Source of the DNA: Rhodospirillales bacterium
GTDB taxonomy: Bacteria; Pseudomonadota; Alphaproteobacteria; Rhodospirillales; UBA2165
Assembly (NCBI GenBank): GCA_046582495.1
Contig: JAYGEG010000067.1
Location: 13,666 to 77,665 of the forward strand
DNA: 64,000 nucleotides
Direction of reading: 5' to 3'
The position numbers were made by a program, and so were the translations under genes. A model generated the notes under the pieces. The model was not told where the DNA came from. It worked only from the letters and a program-made list of their open reading frames with translations, and did not search any database. Shown here one piece after another: positions 9,010 to 44,785 of this stretch; the stretch's first letter is position 1, and each line of letters begins with the position of its first letter.

Positions 9010-9657
9010 ATGACAGTAGCAACGCTCAAAATCGGCAATAAAAATTATTCATCCTGGTCTTTGCGAGGCTGGCTTGCCGTCAAGATGTCCGGCCTCGAGT
9101 TCGATGAAAAAATCGTGCCATTGTTCGAAGCTAATCACGCTGAAACCATGGCGCGGGAAACGCCAGCCAGCAAAGTGCCGGTCTTGCTGCATGACGGTAG
9201 CAAAATTTGGGAATCGCTTGCAATCGCTGAATATGTCGCCGAGCTGAAACCTGAAGCCAAGATGTGGCCGGAAAATGCAATGTTGCGCGCTGAGGCACGC
9301 TCTATCTCTTGCGAAATGCTGTCCGGCTTTACCGGACTGAGATCGCAGTATCATATGAACTGCCGAAAAGTCTTTCCCGACATCGCACCCACTGAAGCGT
9401 GCCAAAGCGATATCGCCCGCATTCAGAATATTTGGCTGGACTGTCTATCTAAGTCGAGCGGGCCGTTTTTATTCGGCGCTTTCTCCATCGCTGACATCAT
9501 GTACGCACCGGTGGTCTCTCGCTTTAAAACTTACGAGGTCCCGGTTAGCGACACTATTCAGGCTTATATGGACACGCTCCTCTCCCTCCCTGACATGCAG
9601 GATTGGTACACCGCCGCCGAGGCGGAAGAGTGGATTATCGAAGAAGAGGAATACTGA
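9010..9657 (+). CDS. glutathione S-transferase family protein
   Basis: N-terminal thioredoxin-like fold (KVPVLLHDGSKIWESLAIAEY) plus a helical C-terminal domain. Confidence 0.8.
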   Translation: MTVATLKIGNKNYSSWSLRGWLAVKMSGLEFDEKIVPLFEANHAETMARETPASKVPVLLHDGSKIWESLAIAEYVAELKPEAKMWPENAMLRAEARSISCEMLSGFTGLRSQYHMNCRKVFPDIAPTEACQSDIARIQNIWLDCLSKSSGPFLFGAFSIADIMYAPVVSRFKTYEVPVSDTIQAYMDTLLSLPDMQDWYTAAEAEEWIIEEEEY

Positions 9658-9662
9658 GGTAT

Positions 9663-9702
9663 TTGTAATAAAGGTTCCAGGAACCTTTATTACAATGTTA
9701 AC
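9663..9702 (+). repeat. REP element copy 1 (33-nt palindrome plus TGTTAAC tail)
   Basis: TTGTAATAAAGGTTCC-A-GGAACCTTTATTACAA followed by TGTTAAC. It is identical over 40 nt to 10413-10452 and overlaps the RAYT stop codon. Confidence 0.9.
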
Positions 9703-10359
9703 TATTTTTTCGAGGGCGACCACGTTTTCCAGAAGAAAACTTTAGTCCAAAACTTTCTTGCAGCATTCCAAGAAATTTTTCATCGCCTGCAGGAATTCCT
9801 TTATTTGTTGATGTCCGCAAAGAATTAAGGCGCGACTCACTCGGCTTGATCGACAGAAAATCCGCCCAATTACCTATTCTTTCTGCCAACGACGATTGAA
9901 CAACCATATCATCCCGGCATTGCCCCAAATGTGTCGGAGCACTGCTCCAGTTCCATTCATTGGCATATTTTACTAAATTCGAACGAACGGGGTTTTGTTC
10001 CACATAGCGCATAGCGGACAATGTATGGGCTTCGTCCATAACACAGGAATAAAATCGCTCCTGCCAAAGATGACCCGTCCAATCCATGCGTTTATTGATC
10101 ATTCTTGAATAGCGCCGATGAACCTGCCCGACCATTGAACTCAAACCATCAGATGTTGATGGGACTACAATGAGGTGAACATGATTGGGCATTAAGCAAT
10201 AAGCCCAAATTGCAATATCTCTTCGTTGGCACCATTCTGCCAACAATAATTTATAAGCTTGATAATCTCCGGGACCAAAAAAGTCTGTTGCCGCCGTGTA
10301 CCCCGTTGAGTTACGTGGTGCGGCATTCCGGGAACAATAAGGCGTGGGTTACGTGGCAT
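9698..10359 (-). mobile_element. REP-associated tyrosine transposase (RAYT, IS200/IS605 TnpA-like HUH enzyme), reading frame broken by a 1-nt frameshift
   Basis: The N-terminus MPRNPRLIVPGMPHHVTQRGTRRQQTF (ATG at 10359) is in one frame. FFGPGDYQAYKLLLAEWCQRRDIAIWAYCLMPNHVHLIV...MRYVEQNPVR is in another. That second part carries the HUH motif HVH and a Tyr-helix region. The two frames join at the A6 run 10277-10282. Confidence 0.85.
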
Positions 10360-10412
10360 GTAGTTAATATGCAGGGCCTAGAGGGCATTTTTCCACGCTT
10401 TGAGAAATTTAA

Positions 10413-10452
10413 TTGTAATAAAGGTTCCAGGAACCTTTATTACAATGTTAAC
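10413..10452 (+). repeat. REP element copy 2
   Basis: 40 nt identical to 9663-9702 and in the same orientation. It lies 54 nt upstream of the RAYT start and 3 nt after the methyltransferase stop. Confidence 0.9.
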
Positions 10453-10454
10453 AA

Positions 10455-11246
10455 TTACCCCGGTTTGAACGCCAAAAAAGCGTAGCCGTAGACTTCGAAG
10501 GCACGGGCGTTTGGCTCACCGCCGGCGCCGCCAAAGGTGTCTATCGGATCACCAATATCGACATTCACAAAGCCCGTGTCTTCCAACATTTTCTGCCAAC
10601 CTGCACACGGCAGGCCACCGGCAATTCAGGCGGTCCAGAGGTCAATGTTGTTGAGGGCGCCCTCCGGGACCGGTTTGCCATTGGCAATGTCGGCAAATTG
10701 CAGCCGGCCTCCTGGCCTGAGCACTCGGTAGGCTTCGCTAAAAACCCCCTGCTTGTCGGAGCAGAGATTAAAAACGCCGTTGCTGATGAGAATGTCTGCC
10801 CAACCATCTTCAACCGGCATCTCTTCCAACAGACCTTCGCGGAATTCAACATGATCGAGTTCCATGGCGACGGCCGTCACGCGAGACTTTTCGAGCATTT
10901 CTTCGGTCATATCGATGCCAATCACTTTACCCGATGGCCCGACCTGAGCAGCCGCGACAAACGAATCAAATCCGGCACCTGATCCCGCATCAACAATTTT
11001 AGCACCTTCTTCCAAAGGCATCATCGAATGCGGATTGGCAACGCCGGCAAATGATTCGACCGCTGCATCCGGCATCGGATCGACAATGGCCGCGTCATAC
11101 CCCAAGCGATGCGCCAAATAGCGCCCGGTATGAAAATGAAATTCGCCATCCGGGTCAGTCGCGACTTCCCGGTATTTTTCTTTGACTTGCTCCCGAAGCT
11201 CATCAGGATCAACCGATGGTTCAAAATTTGGTGCATCTTTTGGCAT
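10455..11246 (-). CDS. ArsM/UbiE-like class I SAM-dependent methyltransferase with an internal in-frame TGA (Sec candidate or nonsense mutation)
   Basis: SAM motif IVDAGSGAGFD. The ORF stops at TGA 10628-10626 after ...NNIDLWTA. The same frame then continues IAGGLPCAGWQKMLEDTGFVNVDIGDPIDTFGGAGGEPNARAFEVYGYAFLAFKPG* to the TAA at 10457-10455. Confidence 0.7.
10598..10616 (-). promoter_or_regulatory. candidate bacterial SECIS-like hairpin downstream of the in-frame UGA
   Basis: The mRNA reads UGA-AUUGCCGGU-GGCCUGC-CGUGU-GCAGGUU. This is a 7-bp stem (2 G-U pairs) and a 5-nt loop containing G. The loop begins about 17 nt after the UGA. Confidence 0.3.
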
Positions 11247-11370
11247 AAAATTCTCCCGTTGCTTACCAGCAAGTATGCCATATTTTGAGCCTCAACGGGG
11301 GGCCATTCGTTAAATATTTATGAACGAAGCAAAAGAATCAAAAAATATTTACAAACAGGCCAACTAAGTA

Positions 11371-11439
11371 TTGACCCAAATTTCAATTAGCCTACTATAT
11401 CTAGTGGTCGATGGGCCATCTTGACGACATATATGGGAT
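11371..11439 (+). promoter_or_regulatory. putative nrdAB promoter with two NrdR-box-like sites
   Basis: TTGACC (11371-76), a 16-nt spacer, then TACTAT (11393-98). Box 1 is CTACTATATCTAGTGG (11392-11407). The weaker box 2 is ACGACATATATGGGAT (11424-11439). The box centres are 32 bp apart. Confidence 0.45.
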
Positions 11440-43853: not shown

Positions 43854-43860
43854 TTAACAA

Positions 43861-43891
43861 TGTAATAAAGGTTCCAGGAACCTTTATTACA
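43861..43891. repeat. REP element copy 3 (31-nt palindromic core)
   Basis: TGTAATAAAGGTTCC-A-GGAACCTTTATTACA is identical to the core of the RAYT-flanking REPs. It fills the 38-bp gap between convergent genes. Confidence 0.9.
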
Positions 43892-44785
43892 TTACTCGAC
43901 GAGTTTGCGGTCTATGCCGGCTGAGGTTTCGATGGCTTTACAGACGGCAGATGTGTCGAGATGGCCGAGGCCTTGGGCAATGGCGGAATTAAATTTTTGC
44001 CAGGCTGAGACATAAAGATCGATCGGTGCCCTGACTTCTGCGGCATAGGACGTGATGATGCTGGCGTCTTTCTCATAGACAGAAAACATTGTGCCGCCGC
44101 CTTCGCGGTAGTCACTTTCGGACATCATTTTGCCGCGAATATCGAACATTTTTGAGCCACCGGCACTTTCCTTGATCACCTCGTAGATGAGCTTTGGATC
44201 AAAACCAGCTTTCTGGCCGAGGGTAAAACATTCCGCCGCGGCGGCATTGTGAACATGGACAAGGTAGTTCGCCAAAATCTTCATGCGGCTGCCATCACCG
44301 ACGTCACCAACATAGAAATTACTTGCCGTGAAGCCGTCAAAAATTGACAGGCATTCTTTGTAAGCAGCTTCGTCGCCGCCGATATGACACGACGCCATGC
44401 CTTTGGCCAGCATCGGCGGCGTTGCACTAATCGGCGCATCCAGCATGTTTTTACCACTTTCTTTGAGCGTCGCCGCGACATCAATTTTTTGCTGAACTTT
44501 AAGCGTCGAACACTCGATGACGATCTGCCCCGGTTTATCCGTTTGGTTCAGCTGTTCAACGACATTTTCGACCGCTGCAATAACCGGCAAAGAAAGGATG
44601 ACGACATCCGCCTTTTCTGAAACTTCCGCAACGCTCGCCGCTGCCTCCAAGCCAAACTCATCAAGAGCTTCAATGCATTTGGGATCGAGATCAAAGCCAA
44701 TGACTTTAAATTGTTTTTTTAAAAGAAGCCCCGCGACATTGCCGCCCATAGGTCCCAATCCAATAACACCAACTGTAACGCTCAT
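43892..44785 (-). CDS. NAD(P)-dependent 3-hydroxyacid dehydrogenase (HIBADH family), paralogue of 41062..41961
   Basis: VGVIGLGPMGG. It shares the same domain order, with roughly 40 percent identity by eye to the other copy. Confidence 0.8.
   Translation of the reverse strand: MSVTVGVIGLGPMGGNVAGLLLKKQFKVIGFDLDPKCIEALDEFGLEAAASVAEVSEKADVVILSLPVIAAVENVVEQLNQTDKPGQIVIECSTLKVQQKIDVAATLKESGKNMLDAPISATPPMLAKGMASCHIGGDEAAYKECLSIFDGFTASNFYVGDVGDGSRMKILANYLVHVHNAAAAECFTLGQKAGFDPKLIYEVIKESAGGSKMFDIRGKMMSESDYREGGGTMFSVYEKDASIITSYAAEVRAPIDLYVSAWQKFNSAIAQGLGHLDTSAVCKAIETSAGIDRKLVE

Follow-up and report, generated by a model that had tools for sequence, protein, structure and literature searches.

A single-copy RAYT/TIRYT-type nuclease gene between identical self-complementary 40-nt elements in a Rhodospirillales genome, very probably a REPtron-like cassette of the TIRtron type

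The window analysed here is a stretch of 64,000 nucleotides from a Rhodospirillales bacterium (NCBI GenBank assembly GCA_046582495.1, contig JAYGEG010000067.1, positions 13,666 to 77,665 of the forward strand). It harbours a cassette composed of a Y1/HUH tyrosine nuclease gene of the RAYT/TIRYT type and two copies of a 40-nt element, one on each side of the gene (Table 1). The neighbours of the cassette are two genes that converge on it, a glutathione S-transferase (GST) gene with its stop codon at 9655-9657 and a methyltransferase gene with its stop codon at 10455-10457. The 40-nt sequence TTGTAATAAAGGTTCCAGGAACCTTTATTACAATGTTAAC occurs exactly twice in the window, both times on the plus strand, while its chance expectation is 0 in 100 shuffles. 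It consists of a 33-nt hairpin, a perfect palindrome of two 16-nt arms around one central base, and the 7-nt tail TGTTAAC. As single-stranded DNA (ssDNA) the hairpin folds with -12.8 to -13.6 kcal/mol (z about -7), and 0 of 200 shuffles fold as well. Being palindromes, the two flanking elements are inverted as well as direct repeats. All copies have (A/T)TGTAAT at the hairpin foot, which holds no GT[AG]G tetranucleotide; the motif GGGGWSAS is absent from the cassette. From the end of the upstream hairpin to the ATG of the nuclease gene there are 54 nt, and the TAA stop codon of the gene (9698-9700, minus strand) falls within the tail of the downstream element. A solo copy elsewhere in the window is identical to the flanking copies in its inner 31 nt and differs in the two outermost bases. 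An earlier sequence-only reading of the window had described a RAYT-type gene bracketed by identical 40-nt sequences, the first 33 nt of which form a 16-1-16 palindrome, and a third copy of the core. All three are present, the third copy spanning 43860-43892. A search of Rfam with positions 9400-11400 at E values up to 1 gave no matches.

Table 1. Coordinates of the nuclease cassette and its features in the window
Feature	Position	Strand	Remark
Whole cassette (hairpin element, nuclease gene, hairpin element)	9658..10454	.	797 bp
40-nt element downstream of the nuclease gene	9663..9702	+	hairpin 9663-9695, TGTTAAC tail 9696-9702
Y1/HUH tyrosine nuclease gene, RAYT/TIRYT type	9698..10359	-	220 aa when intact
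Codon of catalytic Tyr119	10004-10006	-	class-2 'NP' signature then follows
HUH motif codons (H60-V61-H62 of the intact protein)	10175..10183	-	from sequence and alignment to E. coli TnpA-REP
Frameshift site	10277..10282	-	T6 on coding strand (A6 on +); T7 in other contigs of the species
Conserved motif GGAAAAATGCCCTCTAGGCCCTGCATA upstream of the ATG	10368..10394	-	seen in 7/13 aligned upstream regions
40-nt element upstream of the nuclease gene	10413..10452	+	hairpin 10413-10445, tail 10446-10452
Solo hairpin copy	43860..43892	.	TTAACA tail on the left; fills the junction between two convergent genes

The protein starts with MPRNPRLIVPGMPHHVTQRG and contains the motifs PNHVHLIV and RYVEQNPVR, as had been read from the letters of the sequence before. 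It scores 65.4 bits with Pfam Y1_Tnp (cut-off 23) and 77.8 bits with the NCBIfam model REP_Tyr_transpos (NF047646), just below the cut-off of 80; in a genome scan three paralogs score 66-75 bits with the latter model. We attribute this near miss to the model being built around subclass 2.2-like proteins. With the IS200 model NF033573 the score is 33.2 bits as compared to a cut-off of 55, and in the PDB the protein matches E. coli TnpA-REP best (4ER8, E 4e-5), better than ISDra2 TnpA (E 0.06). H60-V61-H62 and Y119-VEQ-NP constitute the class 2 TnpA-Y1 signature (Y---NP), the motifs being defined in Table 1 of PMC6006769. Markers of subclass 2.1 are NHVH, W[EQ], Y[IV]ELNP, SS in the proximal tail and a median length of 238 aa (PMC6006769). 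These are matched by PNHVH, HLWQE, YVEQNP, WNWSS and 220 aa in the window protein, whereas the two intact paralogs of the genome read YVELNP instead of YVEQNP. Subclass 2.1 equals RAYT group 1 of Bertels and the TIRYTs of Di Nocera et al. 2013 (PMC6006769; PMC3733652). By its sequence, the window protein is a TnpA-Y1 protein of subclass 2.1, i.e. RAYT group 1 or TIRYT. Placement among the RAYT groups had been proposed as a check in the sequence-only reading, and this is its outcome from the motifs and from the tree of 101 proteins described below. Distal domains expected in subclass 2.1 are Bac_DnaA_C, HTH_23 or HTH_28, and the distal C-terminal domain is heterogeneous in group 2.1.2 (PMC6006769). 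When the 93 C-terminal residues were scanned with Pfam at E values up to 5, no helix-turn-helix (HTH)-like domain was detected. The only match was AT_hook with 13.6 bits (cut-off 17.4), a weak match that corresponds to the C-terminal KRGRPRK.

Concerning the number of hairpins, the host genome (G000; 3.35 Mb in 216 contigs, 95.8% complete) is a draft, so the count of 10 copies, two flanking and eight solo, is a lower bound. The 29-nt core is identical in nine of them, the tenth being diverged. They carry the tail TGTTAAC or a near variant, and all lie outside gene bodies. Six of the eight solo copies are found between the stop codons of convergent open reading frames (ORFs) that encode at least 170 aa; they abut or, in many cases, overlap a stop codon. 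The remaining two lie between co-directional genes and after a gene beside a gene fragment, respectively. There are no adjacent solo copies in the genome and hence no BIME/REPIN doublets. The sequence-only reading was right in regarding the element as dispersed, and a restriction to only three places, which would have spoken against it, is refuted by the 10 copies. Of the census it had proposed, the intergenic position was borne out, mostly at convergent gene ends, but BIME-like doublets were not seen. The most diverged solo copy (C185:8926-8965) is the one between co-directional genes; in its tail TGTTAAGGAAAT a Shine-Dalgarno-like AAGGA precedes the ATG of the downstream cupin-like gene by 8 nt, and the same layout exists in the ortholog of the congener G007.

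The nuclease gene itself is single-copy, with no copy above 47% identity, and does not constitute the multi-copy insertion sequence (IS) that had been considered as the other outcome. Two intact paralogs are present (C147:24121-24765, 47% identical, and C200:10987-11640, 44% identical), each between its own, different hairpins. The 16-mers of the flanking elements occur 13 times in the genome, both strands counted, and belong to the top dispersed words of this repeat-poor genome; more abundant is TAATTAAGTGACAGTC with 25 occurrences. The suggestion that the present pairing of gene and repeat defines the REP family of the organism therefore does not hold, given only 10 copies, two further cassettes with other hairpins and the more abundant TAATTAAGTGACAGTC.

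Regarding these other repeats, the C147 cassette (C147:24046-24858) carries hairpins of the sequence TTAATCAACAACTGTTGATTATTAA. The C200 cassette (C200:10881-11747) has a 26-bp stem with a 22-nt loop, the arms of which hold the canonical GGGGACAC (GGGGWSAS). Both hairpin types have several dispersed relatives each. The commonest repeat of the genome is a composite element at 19 loci (e.g. C178:145336, C54:66768, C65:2693), built of TTAATTA-AGTGACAGTCACT-TAATT, a conserved linker ATTCACAACTTCCTTAATTA and a second small palindrome. Its palindrome boxes are interchangeable (GTGACAGTCAC, CAACTGTTG, GGGGACACAATAC, CGACAGTCG), and the commonest box flanks no RAYT gene in this genome.

The association of nuclease and repeat extends over the whole protein family. 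A homolog scan of species-representative genomes yielded more than 588 loci in many phyla, all with at most 52% identity. For 53 loci with full flanks we searched for an exact repeat of at least 14 nt shared by the upstream and downstream flank, in comparison with two controls. Such a repeat was present at 35 of the 53 loci as compared to 1 of 53 in each control. The shared repeats are mostly inverted and contain GGGGACA(S)...TAC...TTAATT. The GGGGACA motif stands in forward orientation upstream of the gene in 47 of the 53 loci, most commonly at position -55, and reverse-complemented downstream in 41. Oriented GGGGWSAS ends are the signature of TIRtrons (PMC3733652). In a maximum likelihood tree of 101 proteins, 68 of the 100 homologs have GGGGACA flanks and 10 more have GTGACA-type flanks. 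The window gene falls into a clade (support 100/99) with L002 (genome G013), L003 (G007), L004 (G011) and L150 (a metagenome contig), all from the same bacterial family. The sister group of this clade (93/89) is that of paralog C147 and its orthologs. None of the 11 genes of the two sister clades possesses GGGGACA ends; each has its own self-folding hairpins on both sides, and this group is confined to the bacterial family of the host in our sample. Paralog C200 is placed among the canonical GGGGACA members. A GTWCCWGGWA core in the hairpins of the window gene, L002 and L004 was considered as a case of protein-DNA co-variation and rejected: it requires three changes on the tree and is no more clustered than shuffled labels.

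Comparison with related genomes reveals that the cassette is an insertion/deletion difference. In the congeners G007, G008 and G011 the convergent GST and methyltransferase genes are only 3 nt apart, stop codon to stop codon, where the window has 797 bp (alignment and synteny). No target-site duplication is visible at the junctions of the cassette. The nearest RAYT among 40 relatives searched is 56% identical. In G007 a cassette (L003) sits in a convergent junction that is empty in the host genome. Metagenome contig L150 (ERZ24794645 NODE_3903) carries a RAYT gene, 54% identical, at the same methyltransferase/GST junction in the same orientation. The hairpins of L150 differ from those of the window (GTGACTGGTGTAATT arms), and its flanks most resemble those of G013, a genome with 6 nt and no cassette at this junction. 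We conclude that whole cassettes are gained or lost at convergent junctions. The methyltransferase/GST junction is either a recurrent landing site or received one old insertion that was later lost repeatedly and precisely. For paralog C147, synteny with the counterpart in G007 (66% identity, different hairpins) indicates vertical descent with co-evolving repeats.

Among the 40 relatives, the hairpin family of the window was found only in the congeners G007 (7 copies) and G005 (2 copies). Three of the G007 copies are identical to those of the host genome and four have a GGTACC stem tip. Counterparts at orthologous G007 junctions exist for three solo copies of the host genome; for two of these three the 29-nt cores are identical except for the central base, while the flanks are only 77-80% identical. 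At the 43860 junction a hairpin is found at the orthologous site in G007, G008, G011, G005 and G003. Its stem tip is GGTACC in G008, G011 and G005 (one G005 arm reading GGTATC) and GGTTCC/GGAACC in the host genome and G007; the G003 hairpin looks like a plain terminator of A-tract, stem and T-tract. At another junction (C166:46156-46195 of the host genome) the host genome and G007 carry the window hairpin family, the hairpin of G011 is of the family found on either side of that genome's RAYT gene (L004), G005 carries another hairpin and G003 carries none. This junction is the strongest, though indirect, evidence for the placement of nuclease-linked hairpins at junctions of this kind, and it is also compatible with selection by the host on the hairpins.

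These results very probably describe a REPtron-like cassette of the TIRtron type, in which a single-copy Y1 nuclease gene of subclass 2.1 lies between identical 40-nt elements with eight solo copies dispersed in the genome. Its anatomy, copy number, placement at gene ends, family, insertion/deletion status and the co-inheritance of repeat type with nuclease clade are established. The more exact designation is a TIRtron (subclass 2.1, group 1) whose ends are self-complementary, as opposed to a canonical REPtron with GTAG-REPs. The sequence-only reading had spoken of a RAYT with its cognate REPs. This stands insofar as the gene is a single-copy Y1/HUH gene nearer to RAYT than to IS200 and has its own dispersed hairpins, but the hairpins are not canonical REPs and lack the GT[AG]G foot. 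With TIRtrons and TIRYTs (PMC3733652; PMC6006769; RAYT group 1 of Bertels et al. 2017, PMC5581495) the cassette shares NHVH, WQ, Y-x-E-x-NP, the WSS proximal tail and a length of about 220-240 aa, as well as a low-copy gene with a repeat on each side, a patchy taxonomic distribution and a moderate repeat abundance (13 occurrences of the flanking 16-mers as compared to a reported mean of 12 for group 1). Paralog C200 even carries the canonical GGGGACAC arms. The window cassette differs from TIRtrons in that its ends are a self-folding 33-nt palindrome with a 7-nt tail instead of GGGGWSAS, and in that no HTH/DnaA-C-like distal domain was detected in the protein, only the weak AT-hook-like KRGRPRK. 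Wholly self-complementary TIRs have already been noted by Di Nocera et al. (PMC3733652).

The E. coli REPtron (rayT/yafM, TnpA-REP, 4ER8; subclass 2.2, RAYT group 2) and the Pseudomonas REPIN-RAYT systems likewise comprise a single-copy Y1 gene between cognate extragenic palindromes that are dispersed at gene 3' ends, with an own repeat family for each paralog, and E. coli TnpA-REP is the closest structural relative by sequence. The canonical REP foot is a 5' GT[AG]G tetranucleotide (subclasses 2.2, 2.4, 2.5, 2.7 and 2.8; PMC6006769), whereas the window hairpin has the foot TGTAAT and a perfect stem without bulge. Further differences are the lack of BIME/REPIN doublets, a copy number of 10 and not hundreds, a C-terminal extension of about 80 aa and the cassette being an insertion/deletion difference between congeners and not a stably inherited locus. 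As to the mechanism, E. coli TnpA-REP and IS608 TnpA suggest by analogy that the enzyme would bind the folded hairpin on ssDNA (lagging-strand template) and cut beside it, Tyr119 forming a 5'-phosphotyrosine link. Rejoining of the DNA would then copy or move the hairpin elements, perhaps the whole cassette, without target duplication. The basic KRGRPRK tail may, speculatively, hold the AT-rich stem.

Several points weigh against the reading as a TIRtron-type cassette. The copy number is low (10), and the gene is frameshifted in the host genome. G007, although 94% complete and carrying seven copies, has none beside a RAYT gene and encodes no nuclease of more than 50% identity, so the hairpins persist without a gene of the window type. 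The paired stem changes at the 43860 junction fit host selection as well as nuclease activity. Read in the direction set by the tail, both flanking copies have A as the central base and the eight solo copies all have T; the latter are accordingly not simple products of the present flanking copies. To our knowledge, activity has been demonstrated for no enzyme of subclass 2.1. Biochemical assays have only been proposed as future work (PMC3733652), and Quentin et al. 2018 found no REPs or REP-like structures for subclass 2.1 (PMC6006769). As regards the central base, it is variable in the G007 and G005 copies and hence has little meaning. An origin of the solo copies by recombination between the flanking 40-mers, in the manner of solo long terminal repeats, was considered as well and is unlikely for the present copies in view of A versus T at this position.

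Two other explanations were weighed against the TIRtron-type cassette. The unit of 0.8 kb could be an autonomous IS200/IS605-like IS, its hairpins being the left and right ends and the solo hairpins by-products. The presence of the unit in the host genome at a junction of 3 nt in three congeners, the related G007 cassette likewise inserted into a convergent junction empty in the host genome, and the 54%-identical cassette at the methyltransferase/GST junction of another lineage, whose nearest sampled genome G013 is empty there, all agree with this. So do the missing target duplication, as expected of Y1 transposases, and the direct orientation of hairpins and tails, which resembles the ends of IS608. 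IS200/IS605 elements (IS608, ISDra2; subclass 1.1) indeed share with the cassette the HUH/Tyr fold and sub-terminal hairpins of the same orientation at both ends. But the ends of the cassette are identical, as compared to distinct left and right ends in IS200/IS605, the motif is Y---NP instead of Y---Q, no tnpB is present and GST and methyltransferase genes are the neighbours. Moreover, there is one genomic copy only, the paralogs being 44-47% identical, and the locus is fixed in every recovered contig of the species. Solo hairpins outnumber cassettes 8 to 1, the IS200 model NF033573 reaches 33 bits against its cut-off of 55, and the synteny of C147 with its counterpart in G007 (66%) points to vertical descent. 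Even a distant relative occurs in only 9 of 72,556 plasmid records. We therefore regard an autonomous IS as improbable. The term domesticated, which the sequence-only reading had applied to the enzyme, is doubtful, because the cassette is inserted or deleted with respect to congeners and the population variants look like decay.

Alternatively, the hairpins could be structures of the host, e.g. two-way transcript-end hairpins under selection, and the nuclease gene would sit among them or target them but not spread them. In favour of this are the six of eight solo copies at convergent junctions, some of which supply the stop codon, the hairpin at 43860 kept in five species with compensatory stem changes and terminator-like in G003, and the retention of the family in G007 and G005 without a close nuclease. 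However, selection on a stem would not keep the sequence identical, whereas nine copies have the same 29-nt core and carry a conserved 7-nt tail without structural role, and a scan for consensus terminators did not call the hairpins. Across the protein family, a repeat particular to the nuclease gene stands on either side of it at 35 of 53 loci, as compared to 1 of 53 in the controls. The methyltransferase/GST junction has no hairpin in the congeners, hence the gene did not land in a resident one, and different species put their own nuclease-linked hairpin at the same junction. On balance we hold it unlikely that the hairpins are host structures of this kind, and favour the TIRtron-type cassette.

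In the assembly of the window the frame of the nuclease is broken at a run of A6/T6, a point missing from the sequence-only reading. What remains is an N-terminal ORF (10359..10192), genuine in its first 27 codons, and a separate catalytic frame (10300..9698). Protein search retrieved an intact version of 220 aa, 99% identical to the window product. According to the protein cluster alignment, protein P0127 equals the window product except that ...QQTFFGPGDY... is restored. The intact gene with T7 is found in 5 of 5 full-length metagenome contigs that belong to the same species and come from different samples (L018, L019, L020, L024 and L025), with the same locus order of methyltransferase, RAYT, GST and gatC and the same flanking 40-mers; L024 and L025 encode P0127 exactly. 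With one T missing from the T7 run, the gene in this assembly is either inactive or mis-assembled; T6 reflects a strain-level null allele or else an error of the assembly. Further variants exist in the population. The alleles P0001, P0126 and P0128 carry P124S in the otherwise invariant 'NP' beside the catalytic tyrosine. Three metagenome contigs of the same species (L021-L023) have a 1,433-bp deletion of window positions 9861-11293 with 2 nt of microhomology at the junction. Lost with it are the methyltransferase gene, most of the RAYT gene and the hairpin upstream of the latter, while a 57-aa ORF and the downstream hairpin remain. P124S and the 1.4-kb deletion suggest weak or relaxed constraint on the nuclease gene, which counts as a further point against the favoured cassette.

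The T6/T7 run might also be a functional switch that sets the amount of nuclease, either by slipped-strand phase variation or by a -1 ribosomal or transcriptional slip on T_TTT_TTG. A -1 shift on T TTT TTG restores the frame exactly, and both T6 and T7 alleles occur among the assemblies of the species. Yet T7 is found in 5/5 other full-length contigs, and a lone T6 assembly would be expected from an error in the homopolymer or from one null mutation. Paralogs and homologs do not conserve the run either but encode FF with other codons (e.g. TTC TTT in C200). No stimulatory structure was seen, although no search aimed at one was made. A switch is thus highly improbable.

Taken on its own, the locus is one more RAYT-type cassette. 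Its value is that of a clean comparative case in a subclass that still awaits biochemistry and in which one survey reported no association with REPs. Jointly available are the intact allele P0127, a defined 40-nt substrate and natural frameshift and deletion alleles, in addition to congeners that keep the hairpins without the gene and junctions with different nuclease-linked hairpins depending on the species. Such a set would permit a direct test of repeat mobilisation by subclass 2.1 enzymes and of a host role at convergent gene ends. A tentative idea, to which we give little weight, is that one clade of subclass 2.1, in the sample limited to this bacterial family, swapped the canonical GGGGACA inverted repeats for self-folding hairpins that are both installed and kept identical in sequence precisely at convergent stop junctions, with every species putting its own nuclease-linked hairpin there. 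The nuclease would then be an installer and maintainer of host-used hairpins and not purely selfish.

Upstream of the nuclease gene a sequence motif is conserved, with the consensus GAAAAA-N4-CTCT(A/G)G-N-CC-N2-C-ATA about 10-35 nt before the RAYT ATG. It is common to L002, L003, L004, L007, L139, L140, L150, C147 and C200, the RAYT genes sharing it being 44-57% identical and having unrelated hairpins. Compared by eye with the sigma-70, sigma-54, sigma-32 and extracytoplasmic function (ECF) consensus sequences, it fits none of them. As a guess, it may be the site of a shared regulator or an unusual promoter.

The neighbouring S-adenosylmethionine (SAM) methyltransferase gene (10455-11246, minus strand) contains an in-frame TGA at 10626-10628, from which 44 codons lead to TAA at 10455-10457. 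The TGA lies at what we take to be the conserved Cys site of ArsM-like enzymes. A hairpin follows the UGA, its fold energy not being exceptional. All 16 methyltransferase orthologs found in the bacterial family have exactly one in-frame TGA, and tRNA-Sec is encoded in the host genome (C108:402-498). The methyltransferase is very likely a selenoprotein.

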